A program made the position numbers and the translations under genes. 64,000 nt of DNA. Origin: Pirellulales bacterium. GTDB taxonomy: Bacteria; Planctomycetota; Planctomycetia; Pirellulales; JAICIG01. The stretch is from contig DATKSN010000233.1 of the NCBI GenBank assembly GCA_035531595.1, forward strand, positions 4,414-68,413. The letters run 5' to 3'. The notes beneath the pieces were generated by a model that worked only from the letters and a program-made list of their open reading frames with translations, was not told where the DNA came from and searched no databases. This document shows positions 1 through 10,053 of the stretch, in pieces (positions within the stretch are counted from its first letter, which is position 1; each line of letters begins with the position of its first letter).

Positions 1-980
1 ACGAAGCTGTCCGGCCAACTCCGCACAAACCGCCGGCCCCCAACGCCGAGCGACGCAGCAACTCCTTCGATGTCGACAGCCGGCAGATTTTGAAGGACCG
101 TGCGAAGTCGCTGAAAATGGGCGCGTTGGAACGGTACATCTCGCGCCGCAGACGTCCGTTGCCAATTCGCTGGATTGTCCCCCGTCAACAGGAAGTACGC
201 CAATGAGCTCCAGGCGAACAGGTCGCAGCGCTCGTCGACACGGCCGCCAGCGGCACGCACTTCGGGTGGGAAAAACCCCTCGGCATATCGTTCCGGCGGG
301 AACATCACCCGCCAGGCGCCGTCGCTTCGACCGTTGACGATGTTCTCGGAAGCGACGTAGTGCGGGCCGTCCATTTCGTCAACCCAGATCGCCGCCGGGA
401 AAGGGCCGTTCAACACGAGTCCTTTTCCATGCATCTGTTGCATAAATTGCAGAAGCCGAGCAAGCAATTGCAATACTCGGCGCGGCGACGGCTGCACGAC
501 CCTCTTCCAGGTTGCCAAGTCTTGTCCGTGGATCTTCTCGAACACCAGCACAGGCTCCTTGTCGATGAGCCGGCCGGAGCGGGGGAAGGAAAATTGGTCC
601 TGATCGTTTCGCAGCCTCAAGACGTCGAGGGGCTCCGGCAACAGGTTTGTCTCGCGGATCCCGAGGACACTTTTTGCCTCGAAGCGCGATTGTTCGCGGC
701 GCAGGTTGACGTACTCCCTGTCGTCGCATCGCGTGTAAACGATGGACTTCAACAATACGTCGAGGCATTCGTCTAAATCGGCTTCTTCCGGCCGCCCTTC
801 TTCGAACTTGAAGTTGCGGAAGATCTTCTTGCCAGTGTAAAGGCCGTGCCAGGGCGTTTCGGCGATCGTGCCCGTCACCGTGTAGATCGGCTGATTGCCC
901 GAAACAACCCCGTCAGGACTGTCAGAGATTCCTTCAACGCGCAAATGGTCGTGCAGGCGCGCGCCAGGCGTTAGTTTCAC
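1..980 (-). CDS. Kinase-fold protein with degenerate catalytic motifs (pseudokinase-like); C-terminus lies beyond the left edge
   Basis: It is absent from the ORF track because it runs off the window. My reverse-strand translation starts at GTG 980-978, with GGAGG 5 nt upstream and 2 nt after the TGA of the upstream kinase gene. It stays open to nt 1: VKLTPGARLHDHLRVEG...LLQFMQQMHGKGLVLNGPFPAAIWVDE...FPPEV...RCDLFAWSSLAYFLLTGDNP. The kinase C-lobe pattern is present (APE-like FPPE, subdomain-IX-like DLFAWSSLAYFLLTG). No HRD/DxKxxN loop or DFG aspartate is seen. Confidence 0.6.
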   Translation of the reverse strand, partial: MKLTPGARLHDHLRVEGISDSPDGVVSGNQPIYTVTGTIAETPWHGLYTGKKIFRNFKFEEGRPEEADLDECLDVLLKSIVYTRCDDREYVNLRREQSRFEAKSVLGIRETNLLPEPLDVLRLRNDQDQFSFPRSGRLIDKEPVLVFEKIHGQDLATWKRVVQPSPRRVLQLLARLLQFMQQMHGKGLVLNGPFPAAIWVDEMDGPHYVASENIVNGRSDGAWRVMFPPERYAEGFFPPEVRAAGGRVDERCDLFAWSSLAYFLLTGDNPANWQRTSAARDVPFQRAHFQRLRTVLQNLPAVDIEGVAASLGVGGRRFVRSWPDSF

Positions 981-4337: not shown

Positions 4338-6311
4338 TCAGCCGTTCTCCTTCGTTGGTGGCGGATCGCCAATGACCTTGATGACCGCGCACGTGATATT
4401 GTCGCCGAAGCCATTCGGCTCCGCAACCGATGGCAATCGCTGAAGCGCATCCGCGGCGTCGACAAGCCGTTCAGCGATCGCTTGAGCAGAAAGGCACCTG
4501 CAGTCGCGGACGATCGCCGCGACCTCGTCCGGTCCGAGGAATACGCCCTCTTCGACCAGACCGTCCGTGCAAAGCACGAGCACATCACCTGGGCGAAGAG
4601 GCCAATGGGCAATCTGCGGCGTCGATCTCTCAACGTCGGTCGCCGTGGCTCCGTTCGGGTCGCGGCGGCAGGCCCCCAGGCAGCAGCGCAATGATTTCGC
4701 CTCAACACCCATGTCTCGGACGTGTTCAGGGGGCGTTGGCGCCGCCAGAGTCGTCGAGCGAACATCGCCGTCCACCGTGAGTTGTTCCGCCAGAGGCCCT
4801 TCGATCAGGTATGCCCGACTGTCTCCGGCGTTTGCAATGTGCAGGACGTTGCCATGTAGCAAACCGACAACGGCTGTAGTGCTCATTACGTCGGACTCGC
4901 GAAAGTCCGGGGGTAGTTGGCCTTGGTCGATGGCCGTTCGGACGATTTCCGTCCCTGCTTCAACAAAGCACCGCGAAAGCGACGCGGCGATGGTGGCTCG
5001 CGTAGATAGGTCCAACTCAGAACTCGCGGTTTTTGCCAGTGCGTCGCAGGCAATGCGGCTGGCCCTCTCGCCGCTCCCGATACGAGCAGTGCTGACGCCG
5101 TCGAGCACACATACAAGCGCCGCCGGCGCCTCGAATGGACGTTCGATCGCTTCGGAGGGCAAAGCACGCCGTACTGTTCTCGAAATCAGCCTGAACCCGT
5201 CGGCGCATCGGTTGAGGGCCGTGACGATACGCCGCGCAATGCCTTGAGTCGCGACCGCATGGGGGCGCCCACTTACCGGGACCGTGAAGACGGCGAATTG
5301 GTCTTGGTTCGCAGACCCCATTGCCGTCTTCGCGCGGCCGGCGCGCGTCAAGCCACCGATTTCGTGCCGAACCTTTGCACTTACGACGTACCGGACCCCA
5401 GCGCGCCAGACTGCCGCCTCGAGGTCGGCCAAAAAATCCTGCGTTGACGGAAATCGTGACTTCGGATCTACCCGAAGTCCGCGTTCCACCACCGGAGCGA
5501 TGCCGGGTGGCAAATTGGGCTTATAAATCCTGAGCGGCGGAAACTCGAAATCGAACGCTTCCAGGCCTCGACCTGGAAAACCACTCGGCAGCAGGCCCGC
5601 CAGCCAATAGTAGGCATACATGCTCATGTGGAATACATCGGTCGCCGACGTGATTTGATCGCCGCGAAATCGGCATACCTCAGGTGGAGAATAGCGCGGG
5701 GATATGCGGATCGACGCCGGGCATTCGTATGCCTTGTAAACCGCCAAATCGAGGTTGGTGACTCGAATGCAATCGCCTGCATCCTCGAGCTGCTCCGGGT
5801 CGAAGTTCAGCCAAACGAGGTCGCGGTCGTGCAACGGCTTCAACACCGAGTGCAGTGTTCGACAGGCATCGACGAGGGCGGCCACGCTCGAAACCCATTC
5901 GCGCCAAGCGGGGTCGCTCCCGTGGCCGTTCAACGTAAATGGCCCTCCCTGCCCCGCCTCGGCAAGCACGATCGCCCCTGCGTTGACGGGAACGACTTTG
6001 ATTCGTGGCAAGATGGGAAGTTCGACTTGTGACCGTTGCTCGACCATCGGCTGGAACTCGGCCCAACGCTTCGAGTTCAAACCGTGAGCGCGGTGCGTTC
6101 GGCCATCCGAGGAAGTCACCACGAGACCTTGAAATGGGTCAGAGGGCCAAGAGCCGCCCCAGCCGGCACAATCGACGGATTCGCCGCCTTCCAATTCAAG
6201 CGAGTTTGGCGGCGCGTCGTTGGCCGCGAAAATCTCGTCTAGCTCCGAGTTGCAGTGATCGCAAAACTCGGAGTCCAACGATTCGAGGTCGCAGGCTGGG
6301 CACTTGACCAT
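4338..6311 (-). CDS. Zinc ribbon + degenerate kinase-like domain + PP2C Ser/Thr phosphatase fusion
   Basis: Start chosen at ATG 6311 (MVKCPACDLESLDSEFCDHC, a zinc ribbon). The middle region is kinase-like: LHDRDLVWLNFDPEQL, VTNLDLAV, YSPPEV, ATDVFHMSMYAYYWLAG. The C-terminal PP2C motifs are VLDGVSTARIGSGERAS, NAGDSRAYL, LVLCTDGLVE and DNITCAVIKV. Confidence 0.8.
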   Translation of the reverse strand: MVKCPACDLESLDSEFCDHCNSELDEIFAANDAPPNSLELEGGESVDCAGWGGSWPSDPFQGLVVTSSDGRTHRAHGLNSKRWAEFQPMVEQRSQVELPILPRIKVVPVNAGAIVLAEAGQGGPFTLNGHGSDPAWREWVSSVAALVDACRTLHSVLKPLHDRDLVWLNFDPEQLEDAGDCIRVTNLDLAVYKAYECPASIRISPRYSPPEVCRFRGDQITSATDVFHMSMYAYYWLAGLLPSGFPGRGLEAFDFEFPPLRIYKPNLPPGIAPVVERGLRVDPKSRFPSTQDFLADLEAAVWRAGVRYVVSAKVRHEIGGLTRAGRAKTAMGSANQDQFAVFTVPVSGRPHAVATQGIARRIVTALNRCADGFRLISRTVRRALPSEAIERPFEAPAALVCVLDGVSTARIGSGERASRIACDALAKTASSELDLSTRATIAASLSRCFVEAGTEIVRTAIDQGQLPPDFRESDVMSTTAVVGLLHGNVLHIANAGDSRAYLIEGPLAEQLTVDGDVRSTTLAAPTPPEHVRDMGVEAKSLRCCLGACRRDPNGATATDVERSTPQIAHWPLRPGDVLVLCTDGLVEEGVFLGPDEVAAIVRDCRCLSAQAIAERLVDAADALQRLPSVAEPNGFGDNITCAVIKVIGDPPPTKENG

Positions 6312-6760
6312 ATGTATAACGCTGAAAACTGGCGGCGTTGAGTCGTCCTGATTAGTCCACGATGCCACGTCCGAAGTCAATGTAGCAAAGAAAAAACGCA
6401 CACGCAAAAGAGAAACCAGATTCCGTTTTGGCCCAGGGCGCCCTATCCACCGCTGCGCAGCCGTTTCGAGCCGACGACCCAACGGATTTCAATCGCCGCC
6501 GCATCGCGCTATTCCGAGGCCGCGAAATACGCTCAACGGGGCGGCGCGTTTCATCGATCGAAACAGCGGGGGCGTCGGACCCGGGCATAAGTATATATGC
6601 CCCGTACCCGGAAGCTAGTGGGCGAGTGAAAAAGAATGGCTGAGCGCGGTGTCGGCCAACACGCCGCCCCCACGCCGGATTAAGACACCCAGGCATTTGC
6701 CGCAAACGCCGTGGACCGCAAGGCTCGTCTGGGAAATGGGTTAGCTGAATCCAGCGTGTC

Positions 6761-6804: not shown

Positions 6805-6975
6805 TCAGCCCGTCCGCCTGCGTTTCGCGGCGGGGTCGTCGACCAGCTTGACCACGACCCGCTTGCCGAGACCATTGGCCAGCGAGAGCAACGTCAACAG
6901 CGTCGGGTTCGAGGCAACGCCGTTTTCGAGACGACTGATCGCGGCCTTGTCCGTTCCGGCACGTGGCGCCGGCAT
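6805..6975 (-). pseudogene. 5'-truncated XRE/Cro-type helix-turn-helix gene remnant (56 codons)
   Basis: Below the ORF-track size cutoff. My translation: MPAPRAGTDKAAISRLENGVASNPTLLTLLSLANGLGKRVVVKLVDDPAAKRRRTG. This matches the recognition-helix half of XRE HTH domains (..ISRLENG..P.L.TL..LA.aLG). The first helices are missing. Confidence 0.4.
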
Positions 6976-7318: not shown

Positions 7319-7524
7319 CCTTGCGATTCGTCGGACCCAATCCTGTGAATCCCGTCAATCCTGTCGAAGAAAAGCATTCGAGGTGAGTTTCAGGATGGAG
7401 CGCAGCCGCGAGGTCGACCGCGATGAGCGCATCGAATTCAAAAAGCGGCTAGGAAGGCGGGCACATCGGCGGACGCCATCAACTCCGGGTTAACGGTCAT
7501 CAGGCCTTCCGCCTGGGCGGCACG
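7319..7524 (+). repeat. Direct repeat Y (copy 1): vapC 3' end plus about 120 bp downstream
   Basis: About 206 bp, matched at high identity by 8647-8853. It includes the atcctgtgaatcccgtcaatcctgtc motif and the last 28 codons of vapC. Confidence 0.85.
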
Positions 7525-7935
7525 GAGCAGCCGCTGATCAGCGGCGACCAAGATAAAGGTAGTCGTAACAGGTTGCGATCGAGCGAAACCCATGAACGAC
7601 ATGAGGATCGAGGCATCCGCGGAGTTGAGGTTGTGACGATCGATCAAGTCGATTCCGTCAAGCATGTCGCCGAACTCAATGGCCAAGACGCCGAAATCCG
7701 CGTCGTCAATGACTTCGGCGCGTAACGCTGAGCGAGCCACCGAGAAGGTAGCTGCGTCGAGCGCGCCTCCGTTGCGCTTGCGGACCAGGGCGCCACAAGT
7801 CTCCGAATAACTCAGGACGGTCGTGATCATCTGCGCGCGAGAAGCGGCCGCGAAAAGTGCGTTGACGGTCTGGTGCCCGATCTCGGGTGCATAACGTTGC
7901 GCCAGCGCACTCGCATCCCAGAGAAGGAAAACCAC
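7438..7935 (-). CDS. vapC: PIN-domain ribonuclease toxin (VapC-like)
   Basis: GTG start. The acidic residues are in PIN-like spacing: LLWDASAL, SYSET, NSADASIL, VAADQRL. A small upstream partner gene lies 6 nt away. Confidence 0.75.
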   Translation of the reverse strand: MVFLLWDASALAQRYAPEIGHQTVNALFAAASRAQMITTVLSYSETCGALVRKRNGGALDAATFSVARSALRAEVIDDADFGVLAIEFGDMLDGIDLIDRHNLNSADASILMSFMGFARSQPVTTTFILVAADQRLLRAAQAEGLMTVNPELMASADVPAFLAAF

Positions 7936-7941
7936 GGGCTG

Positions 7942-8160
7942 CTACTCCTCGCCATGCTCGCGGCGCATGCGGATGATATCAGCCGAAAGGAAGCGATCCG
8001 CCGGCCGGATGCCTCGCGCCAGCATCATGGCTTGGGCCTTTTCCGCCGTTGCCGTGGGATCGATGACAAAACCCATGCGGTCGTCCAAATCCGCAACGGC
8101 TTTTTGAAGCGCGCGTTTGTCTAGCAGTTTGCTTGCCGGTTGAACCGGGGAGATGGCCAT
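7942..8160 (-). CDS. vapB: Putative VapB-type antitoxin
   Basis: Small ORF immediately upstream of the PIN gene. I prefer the start at ATG 8160 (MAISPVQPASKLLDKRALQ) over the track start at 8184. Assigned by position only. Confidence 0.55.
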   Translation of the reverse strand: MAISPVQPASKLLDKRALQKAVADLDDRMGFVIDPTATAEKAQAMMLARGIRPADRFLSADIIRMRREHGEE

Positions 8161-8229
8161 AGACGTACTCCTGTGCGCGATCAACGTCCCACTTACCCTA
8201 TTGCAATTCTGGCCAAGACCATCGATCAG

Positions 8230-8983: not shown

Positions 8984-9108
8984 GATCGTGACCGGCAAGC
9001 TGCTCTTGGCAAGAAAGCGGACTTGGGATTATCTTGACCCTGGCGGTGGTCGTTTGGTTGCGCGCTGCGCGGCGCGGCCGCCGGAGTCTCGAACGAAAGG
9101 AGTCGACC

Positions 9109-10053
9109 ATGTACTGGGGGGAATGGAAACCGTATGTTCCCGTGGCTAAGCGGCGCGCCCAGGCCGCCCAGTTCGCGGCGAAGCAGGCGAAGAAAGAGGG
9201 TCGCGACCTGCGGCCGGTGAATATCGAAGGCCGCAAGATCGCACGCACGTTCTGGGGCGGAGCCTGGTGCGACAATCTGGAACGCTACAGCGACTTTGAA
9301 AACCGGCTTCCGCGCGGCCGCACCTACGTTCGCAACGGGTCGGTGATCGACCTGCACATCCAGCCCGGACGCGTGAAAGCCTTCGTCAGCGGCTCGGAGG
9401 TCTACACCGTCAAGATCGAGATCGACCGGCTCAAGCCGGCCGACTGGAAGCGGATCAAGGCCGAGTGCTCGGAAGCGATCGATTCGCTGCTCGACCTGTT
9501 GGCCGGTCGCTTTTCCGACGGCGTCATGCGGCGGCTGACGCGCGAGCGGGACGGCCTTTTTCCGCACCCCAAGGAAATCCATATGTCGTGCAGTTGCCCC
9601 GACTGGGCCGGACTGTGCAAACATATCGCCGCCGTACTCTACGGCGTCGCGGCGCGACTCGACGAGGAACCCCAACTCCTGTTTCTGCTCCGCGACGTCG
9701 ACCACGGCGAGCTGGTCAGCCAGGCGGTCTCGGGCGACAACCTCGCCGGCGCCCTGGGCTCGCGAGGCGACGCCCTGGCCGGAGAAGACCTGGGCGCCAT
9801 GTTCGGGATCGATCTCGATTCATCCGCAGTCGGCCAGGCCGCCACGAAAAGCGGGCGCCGGCGCCGCTCGCCGAGCCGCGCCGCCGAGCCGGCCGTGGCG
9901 ACAATCGTCGCGCCCAAGGTGAAGCGTAAGGCGCATGCCACCGCCGCAGCCCTCCCGCCGGCGGCCGCCGAGGAAACGAAAGCCGCCGCGCGCACGCGGG
10001 CCGCCAGGAAGAAACCGCTTGCCGCGGCCAAGCGAAAGCGCGGCGGCGTTTAG
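9109..10053 (+). CDS. SWIM zinc-finger protein with Lys/Arg/Ala-rich basic tail
   Basis: AAGGAG RBS sits before ATG 9109 (MYWGEWKPYVP). The SWIM motif is CSCPDWAGLCKHIAAVLYGV. The C-terminus is a basic low-complexity tail (..AARKKPLAAAKRKRGGV). No SNF2 helicase partner is adjacent. Confidence 0.8.
   Translation: MYWGEWKPYVPVAKRRAQAAQFAAKQAKKEGRDLRPVNIEGRKIARTFWGGAWCDNLERYSDFENRLPRGRTYVRNGSVIDLHIQPGRVKAFVSGSEVYTVKIEIDRLKPADWKRIKAECSEAIDSLLDLLAGRFSDGVMRRLTRERDGLFPHPKEIHMSCSCPDWAGLCKHIAAVLYGVAARLDEEPQLLFLLRDVDHGELVSQAVSGDNLAGALGSRGDALAGEDLGAMFGIDLDSSAVGQAATKSGRRRRSPSRAAEPAVATIVAPKVKRKAHATAAALPPAAAEETKAAARTRAARKKPLAAAKRKRGGV

Follow-up and report, generated by a model that had tools for sequence, protein, structure and literature searches.

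A zinc ribbon-pseudokinase-PP2C fusion protein heads a predicted Ser/Thr phospho-signalling operon in Planctomycetota

The stretch of DNA analyzed here (the window) comprises 64,000 nucleotides of contig DATKSN010000233.1 from a Pirellulales bacterium (assembly GCA_035531595.1). At its start it carries a tight minus-strand operon with intergenic gaps of 2-51 nucleotides, whose first gene encodes a protein made of an N-terminal zinc ribbon, a two-lobed kinase fold (residues ~35-310) with a degenerate active site and a PP2C phosphatase domain (residues ~311-650). Genes for a vWA protein, a zinc ribbon-FHA protein, an active-looking Ser/Thr kinase and a large membrane protein follow (Table 1). 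An earlier interpretation made from the letters alone, hereafter the sequence-only reading, had described the first gene as a phosphatase fused to a dead kinase fold and placed it at positions 4338-6311; the open reading frame (ORF) and its translation bear out these coordinates, with the gene on the minus strand. Figures for residue conservation in the fusion protein refer to an alignment of 39 sequences of fusion homologs.

Table 1. Features of the fusion gene and of the operon, with positions in the window and counts from the 39-sequence alignment.
Feature	Position	Strand	Evidence or conservation
Whole gene, zinc ribbon + pseudokinase + PP2C in one protein, 657 residues	4338..6311	-	ORF and translation; stop codon 4338-4340
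N-terminal four-cysteine zinc ribbon, residues 1-24 (C4, C7, C17, C20)	6240..6311	-	Alignment
Pseudokinase N-lobe, residues ~35-120	5952..6209	-	AlphaFold2 secondary structure, Foldseek alignments, residue table
Pseudokinase C-lobe, residues ~139-310	5382..5897	-	PDB-kinase profile match, hhalign, phmmer
Degenerate catalytic loop LHDRDLVWLNFDPEQ, residues 160-174	5790..5834	-	Register from hidden Markov model alignments to STK17A, twitchin and CDPK
HRD His and Arg replaced by W167 and L168			W in 38/39, L in 38/39
HRD Asp (catalytic base) replaced by N169			N26, T9, E2, S2 of 39; never Asp
Catalytic-loop Lys replaced by D171			D31 of 39; never Lys
Mg-binding Asn replaced by Q174			Never Asn in 39; position variable
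NLD in place of DFG, residues 186-188	5748..5756	-	39-sequence alignment
DFG Asp replaced by N186			N in 36/39; never Asp
DFG Phe replaced by L187			L in 37/39
DFG Gly replaced by D188			D in 39/39
PP2C domain, residues ~311-650	4362..5381	-	Pfam, Foldseek, alignment
Insertion of ~50 residues inside PP2C, residues ~345-396, between PP2C motifs 1 and 2	5124..5279	-	Gap in the other 38 aligned homologs
Operon gene 2, vWA protein, 471 residues	2920..4335	-	Pfam VWA, E-value 9e-13
Operon gene 3, two zinc ribbons then FHA, 247 residues	2129..2872	-	Pfam FHA and zinc-ribbon matches
Operon gene 4, active-looking non-RD Ser/Thr kinase, 364 residues	983..2077	-	Pfam Pkinase, E-value 1e-17
Operon gene 5, cut by the window edge, N-terminal pseudokinase of a 1646-residue membrane protein	1..980	-	Full gene at L001:15332-20272

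The ORF of the fusion gene is open back to a TTG at 6482. A longer protein starting there was considered and rejected: the homologs, about 90 in number, begin with MVxCPxC, and we therefore take the ATG at 6311 as the start codon. The CxxC..CxxC ribbon noticed previously lies immediately behind it as CPAC..CDHC (residues 4-20), its four cysteines being kept in every aligned sequence that covers the region (37-38 of 39). The full-length protein was modeled by AlphaFold2 with a mean predicted local distance difference test score (pLDDT) of 89.8 and a predicted template modeling score (pTM) of 0.90.

Five independent lines of evidence show that residues ~35-310 form a two-lobed Hanks-type kinase fold. 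The Pfam scan of the whole protein returned PP2C only, and the Pkinase model was not matched, but kinase models of NCBIfam and PADLOC match residues 144-305 with E-values from 2e-6 to 6.5e-9. A profile built from ten N-terminal domains matches the solved kinases STK17A, twitchin, CDPK, PknI, PknE and PknA, with E-values from 2.8e-6, in a canonical register that aligns LH..G.VWLNFDP with LH...(I/V)VHRDLKP, ITNLDL with I.DFGL and SPPEV with.APE. in the known structures. When residues 1-320 were compared by phmmer with 1.84 billion representative proteins, 2194 matches were obtained; the strong ones (43 at E-values of 1e-30 or below) are proteins of about 600 residues with the same architecture, or fragments, and the distant ones, at E-values of 1e-16 to 1e-8, are genuine Pfam Pkinase proteins. 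Alignment by hhalign of the fusion family with the family of the kinase encoded by the same operon, the latter represented by a six-sequence alignment, gave a probability of 93.6% and an E-value of 2e-7, over the C-lobe only and at ~21% identity; with a single partner-kinase sequence in place of the family the match was not significant (probability 0.4%). The idea that the domain is a recent duplicate of the operon kinase was rejected on that low profile identity and on the lack of any tblastn cross-match between the two at an E-value of 1e-4.

Because the hhalign match reaches the C-lobe only, the assignment of the N-lobe rests on the structural model. AlphaFold2 modeled residues 1-327 with a pLDDT of 89.7, placing strands at residues 63-67, 72-78, 104-109 and 112-118 and helix C at 80-94. 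The top 50 Foldseek matches of this model are nearly all protein-kinase entries (E-values 1.6e-9 to 3e-8; 252-330 aligned columns), with target template modeling (TM) scores mostly between 0.51 and 0.68, and LIMK2, PknG, CaMKII, PknI, PknA and PknB are among them at E-values of about 1e-9, in alignments of 260-330 columns that span entire kinase domains. Structure prediction with Foldseek, profile searches, phmmer and hhalign thus agree with the sequence-only reading that the middle region has a kinase fold, and the motifs on which that reading was built are all found: LHDRDLVWLNFDPEQL at residues 160-175, NLD at 186-188, SPPEV at 208-212 and DVFHMSMYAYYWLAG at 225-239.

By the standard sequence definition the kinase-like domain is a pseudokinase. 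None of the 39 sequences has the catalytic Asp, the Lys of the catalytic loop, the Asn that binds Mg, the DFG Asp or the beta3 Lys. The lack of a glycine loop and of a VAIK lysine, first remarked upon in the window protein, is true family-wide: a conserved GxGxxG loop was not found in the alignment, and the beta3 strand (residues 72-78) carries an invariant Arg74, a His or Tyr at position 76 and no Lys in any member. In helix C, Arg93 is invariant as well (39/39, as is Arg74). The register of the N-lobe is ambiguous within about one helical turn where the equivalents of the beta3 Lys and the helix-C Glu are sought, and we therefore limit the claim for this lobe to the lack of Lys and the invariance of the two arginines.

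Residues that hold the fold together are retained, namely the APE Glu211 (39/39), the helix-F Asp225 (36/39) and Arg286 (39/39), and the replacement residues W167, L168, F170, N186, L187, D188, R74 and R93 are conserved across the family too. Since both the replacements and the scaffold are conserved, the kinase fold has been remodeled under continuing selection and is no mere product of decay. Mean column conservation is 0.59 for the pseudokinase C-lobe and 0.69 for its alphaF-alphaG-alphaH segment, compared with 0.49 for PP2C; judged by the alignment, the zinc ribbon and the kinase fold are under purifying selection at least as strong as that acting on the phosphatase.

The PP2C domain, described as complete from the letters alone, is so by every measure applied. 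Its Pfam scores exceed the gathering cut-offs (31.4 against 20.3 for PP2C, 31.9 against 24 for PP2C_2 and 32.6 against 25 for SpoIIE), and Foldseek searches with the full-length model retrieved the bacterial PP2Cs 2pk0, tPphA and PstP at E-values of about 1e-13 (best 7e-14) and target TM-scores of 0.76-0.85. The motifs NQD (335-337), DGVS (404-407), GDSR (496-499), TVDGD (512-516), TDGL (582-585) and GDN (636-638) can all be traced, so that the metal-coordinating Asp residues of PP2C motifs 1, 2, 8 and 11 and the GDSR motif are present. N335, D337, D404, G405, D497, D583 and D637, metal-binding by alignment to tPphA, are invariant (39/39). Because every metal-binding residue is kept, the domain should be catalytically competent. 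The insertion of ~50 residues, present in the window protein alone among the 39 aligned sequences, was modeled as two helices of low confidence (pLDDT 53-63).

The start codon of the vWA gene lies 2 nucleotides after the stop codon of the fusion gene. Its product has an intact metal ion-dependent adhesion site (MIDAS), the residues D58xS60xS62, T156 and D186 being invariant in 10 orthologs. In the FHA protein, the residues that bind phospho-threonine (G159-R160, S186-R187-x-H189 and N209-T210-G211) are invariant among orthologs. The partner kinase retains SGGxG, K76, YQDLKPxN, D(L/M)G and PE without exception in six orthologs, and in all six YQD replaces HRD, which makes it a non-RD kinase. 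Its C-terminus coincides with the end of the kinase domain, and no zinc ribbon is found on the 364-residue protein. Between the strand carrying Lys76 and the hinge, this kinase has a long, highly conserved insert, NPNDYVFDWNP..EGP..W.Y. The sequence-only reading had placed the active kinase two genes downstream of the fusion; it is actually the third gene downstream, following the vWA and FHA genes, which that reading had missed.

The full length of the fifth gene was read on the parent contig, where it was located through the identical protein. Its N-terminal domain has LNG at the HRD position, Phe in place of the loop Lys and SEN in place of DFG, so that the partial gene at the window edge does encode a second pseudokinase, as had been proposed. 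With the partner kinase keeping its catalytic residues and the other two folds degenerate, the proposal of one active-looking kinase among three kinase folds likewise stands. The 1646-residue protein matched no Pfam domain above threshold. It has three zinc-finger-like CxxC..HxxxH motifs (at residues 625, 826 and 1049), two predicted transmembrane helices at ~1215-1267 and a C-terminal CxxC.

The homolog search yielded 92 matches, about 89 of which share the zinc ribbon-pseudokinase-PP2C architecture. All full-length relatives belong to Planctomycetota (Pirellulales, Schlesneria, Gemmatales and Gemmataceae), nearly all come from metagenome-assembled genomes, and the homologs are annotated only as PP2C or PrpC. 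Orthologs in Pirellulales, Gemmatales/Gemmataceae and Schlesneria are 34-44% identical to the window protein, and the linker between pseudokinase and PP2C varies from 0 to ~60 residues among homologs. Gene context was assessed for the 22 family loci with enough downstream sequence to judge. The vWA gene lies directly downstream of the fusion in 16 of these, and the vWA, FHA and active kinase genes follow in the same order in seven; six of the 22 are without vWA, FHA and kinase genes beside the fusion. In three of the seven full-set loci an ortholog of the 1646-residue protein follows the kinase (L008 and L067 are among the loci showing it). Fragments of such orthologs were also seen near the fusion gene in L065 and L070.

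Two more distant loci deserve a separate description. The first, a metagenomic locus from a distant lineage (L136:1195-8740), opens with an FHA gene and then encodes a fusion (P0090) of zinc ribbon, degenerate kinase and PP2C. Next come a possible fragment of a PP2C, a protein with a zinc ribbon, a second PP2C, a vWA protein and an FHA protein with a double zinc ribbon; none of the genes called there was recognized as an active kinase. The second, in one Sericytochromatia genome (L013:7122-10281), has an active kinase that bears two zinc ribbons at its N-terminus and, encoded directly after it, a 549-residue degenerate kinase-PP2C fusion. The kinase domain of this fusion has HLD for HRD, Asn for the loop Lys and TGF for DFG, and neither a vWA nor an FHA gene was found near the locus.

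The closest parallel to the operon as a whole is the TerY-P triad, which was reportedly described by Anantharaman et al. in 2012. Anti-phage or restriction-linked forms of TerY-P-like modules are said to have been reported by Gao et al. in 2020 and by Anantharaman et al. in 2012. As summarized in two articles (PMC10542128, PMC4978471), the triad consists of a TerY-like vWA protein, a PP2C and a Ser/Thr kinase with a zinc ribbon or OB fold at its C-terminus. A similar combination is that of a kinase-zinc ribbon protein with PP2C and vWA (PMC7159879). The planctomycete operon resembles the triad in bringing the same three families together, in having zinc ribbons on its components and in the intact MIDAS of its vWA protein. 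It differs in that its kinase has no ribbon, the ribbons being found on the phosphatase and the FHA protein instead, and in the addition of an FHA reader, of the pseudokinase that shares a chain with the phosphatase and, in some of the genomes, of the 1646-residue membrane protein with its own pseudokinase. Neither Ter nor McrBC nor nuclease genes were found in the operon neighborhood. In a PADLOC scan only generic kinase models were significant and none of the matches was named TerY-P, the content of the library with respect to TerY-P models being unconfirmed. Judged by its gene content, the operon is a putative TerY-P-like kinase/phosphatase/vWA module to which an FHA reader has been added.

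Deinococcus radiodurans offers a second parallel. Its genes DRA0331-DRA0334 encode a vWA protein, a kinase, an FHA protein and a KI-FHA-PP2C phosphatase, and the non-catalytic N-terminal FHA domain of the latter has been reported in a 2026 preprint to provide substrate specificity and kinase docking (doi 10.64898/2026.01.23.701218). The four functional parts are the same as in the planctomycete operon, and in both cases the PP2C domain is preceded by a non-catalytic one; docking is assigned to FHA there, whereas a zinc ribbon and a dead kinase fold occupy that place here, and gene order and phylum differ. Fusions of PP2C with kinases were reported in 2005 for Pseudomonas and Deinococcus (Krupa and Srinivasan, PMC1262709). 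They too join PP2C and a Hanks-type kinase fold in one polypeptide, but in the opposite arrangement: PP2C comes first and is followed by a kinase that has retained HRD, Lys and Asn (HRDIKPGN in P0092), while in the planctomycete protein the kinase fold is N-terminal and dead. PknG of Mycobacterium tuberculosis, which gave the longest Foldseek alignments (329-330 columns), likewise has a four-cysteine (rubredoxin-like) module before its kinase fold. It differs in being an active kinase with C-terminal TPR and no phosphatase, and the likeness of ribbon and rubredoxin is not meant as a residue-level correspondence. The threonine-phosphorylation pathway of type VI secretion (PpkA, PppA, Fha1) uses the same set of kinase, PP2C, FHA and vWA domains, the vWA domain being fused to the PpkA kinase there. 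A link with type VI secretion was rejected, as no type VI secretion genes were found around the operon in the window or in related loci.

Seven families of bacterial Ser/Thr pseudokinases are listed as annotated in a 2025 review: ActPs1, ActPs2, ActPs3/MviN, GLW, CP1, DYD and DLHK (PMC12599244). For MviN, the same text ties the pseudokinase to recruitment of an FHA protein. Like ActPs1-3, GLW and CP1 as described there, the fusion family has lost all three canonical motifs and is probably non-catalytic. Searches of the review text found no mention of planctomycetes or of a phosphatase fusion for any of the seven, the sole occurrence of the word "phosphatase" being in the title of a reference; going by its wording, the family described here does not appear to be among them.

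We propose that the pseudokinase works without catalysis and serves the phosphatase to which it is fused as a docking or regulatory module, and we put the probability of this reading at about 0.6. By its sequence, the operon encodes a predicted self-contained Ser/Thr phospho-signalling set of Planctomycetota, with the active non-RD kinase as putative writer, the zinc ribbon-FHA protein as reader, the PP2C fusion as eraser and the vWA/MIDAS protein as adaptor. Because the MIDAS of the vWA protein is intact, a metal-dependent phospho-switch is plausible. Surfaces of the pseudokinase that are typical of kinases may bind either the operon kinase or the targets that this kinase has phosphorylated. 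The candidates are the highly conserved alphaF-alphaG-alphaH face and the remodeled catalytic cleft, and a partner bound there would bring the fused phosphatase into position or gate it. A fixed arrangement, with pseudokinase and PP2C packed as one body, is suggested by the pTM of 0.90. Recruitment of a substrate or pairing with the operon kinase, the roles already suggested by the sequence-only reading, would fit the conserved gene order.

Several observations weigh against this proposal. Contact between pseudokinase and PP2C is read from a single global score, pTM, and a linker of 0 to ~60 residues fits poorly with a rigid interface. As six of the 22 loci are without the vWA, FHA and kinase neighbors, the operon kinase is not necessarily the partner, and the pseudokinase is no recent copy of that kinase, aligning with it over the C-lobe alone at the low identity given above. 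Non-RD kinases are often independent of activation-loop phosphorylation. Because the partner is of this type, the phosphatase may act on a target other than the kinase. The docking proposal and the alternatives considered below are not mutually exclusive.

It is less likely, though still worth weighing, that the pseudokinase is a sensor for its own chain, with a cleft that binds an anionic ligand (metal-free nucleotide, phospho-amino acid or metabolite) and so switches PP2C allosterically. Analogues are the N-terminal regulatory domains of RsbU and RsbP and the pseudokinase domain of JAK, which controls the adjacent kinase domain. The substituted residues are indeed fixed (R74, R93 and D188 in 39/39, N186 in 36/39), the pTM suggests that the two domains form one rigid body, and some loci carry the fusion with no kinase beside it. 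On the other hand, none of the searches run points to a ligand and the glycine loop is missing. Arg74 lies on the face of beta3 that normally lines the adenine pocket and may fill it, and two invariant Arg and one Asp could equally make up a network of salt bridges with a purely structural role. Protein partners, moreover, are what the close linkage to the genes for vWA, FHA and kinase suggests. A more elaborate version, in which the dead cleft (Arg74, Arg93, Asn186 and Asp188) would have become a receptor that recognizes either a phosphorylated residue or a small anionic molecule, we consider doubtful. The fusion would then be a single-chain reader-eraser whose phosphatase is switched by its ligand, within a previously unrecognized planctomycete signalling or anti-phage system that pairs one live kinase with two pseudokinases.

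More doubtful still is that the operon is an anti-phage or conflict system of TerY-P type in which the dead kinase acts as bait, or as a decoy, to draw a phage factor directed against the kinases of the host. Once engaged, the bait would free or block the phosphatase and shift the balance of kinase and phosphatase towards an abortive response, and the large membrane protein might be the effector. TerY-P-like modules are reported to act against phages on their own and also to belong to restriction systems (PMC10542128, PMC4978471), a PIN toxin gene lies nearby, and gene neighborhoods vary between genomes. The best library matches to both kinase folds are to kinase models of defence systems (PD-T4-6 and MADS mad6), but the PADLOC kinase matches are generic, and those of PDC-M21C to the PP2C region and of HEC-01B to the vWA protein are weak, with E-values above 0.01. 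No nuclease or other obvious effector is found among the core four genes. Some of the neighbors are housekeeping genes, for example those for ribosomal protein L17, RNA polymerase alpha and a tRNA synthetase in L003, and the spread of orthologs across Pirellulales, Gemmatales/Gemmataceae and Schlesneria at 34-44% identity reads as long residence rather than as a mobile island.

Kinase folds with unconventional chemistry are represented by the WNK kinases, the AMPylating SelO and the glutamylase SidJ. That the planctomycete domain is an enzyme of this kind using migrated residues is very improbable: polar cleft residues (N169/T169, N186, D188, R74 and R93) are conserved, and the degenerate motifs are as conserved as true catalytic ones, but five canonical positions have been lost together, there is no glycine-rich loop, positions 169 (N, T, E or S) and 174 are variable, and, according to the review (PMC12599244), ATP binding is nearly always missing from bacterial pseudokinases in which the three motifs are all degraded.

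Bacterial pseudokinases have barely been studied, the review text giving only the seven annotated families (PMC12599244). The family described here, of ~90 sequence clusters, is conserved and has had no annotation beyond PP2C; in it a dead writer is hard-wired to a live eraser. Because the kinase-like domain is invisible to Pfam, the fusion genes are under-annotated in every planctomycete genome. The operon offers a compact and separable system for learning how pseudokinases target or gate phosphatases, and it extends the TerY-P class of kinase/phosphatase/vWA modules by a distinct variant.

Other neighbors of the fusion gene in the window or in related loci include HTH, PIN, SWIM and acetyltransferase genes. 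In a Gemmataceae-like genome (L003:8185-9021) the ortholog adjoins a divergently transcribed STAS protein gene and a HATPase_c_2 (RsbW-like) gene; partner-switching pairs of this kind are often served by PP2C phosphatases, and the pair is absent from the window. About 500 nucleotides upstream of the operon, a 56-residue ORF (6805-6975, minus strand) encodes an XRE-type helix-turn-helix (Pfam HTH_3, E-value 4e-6) that might be a regulator. At 7438-8184 on the same strand, an 80-residue ORF precedes a 165-residue ORF with a PIN domain (E-value 1.7e-4, just under the Pfam cut-off), a layout that resembles a VapBC toxin-antitoxin pair. Further upstream, at 9034-10053 on the plus strand, lies a gene for a 339-residue protein that combines a SWIM zinc finger with a basic tail rich in Ala and Arg.

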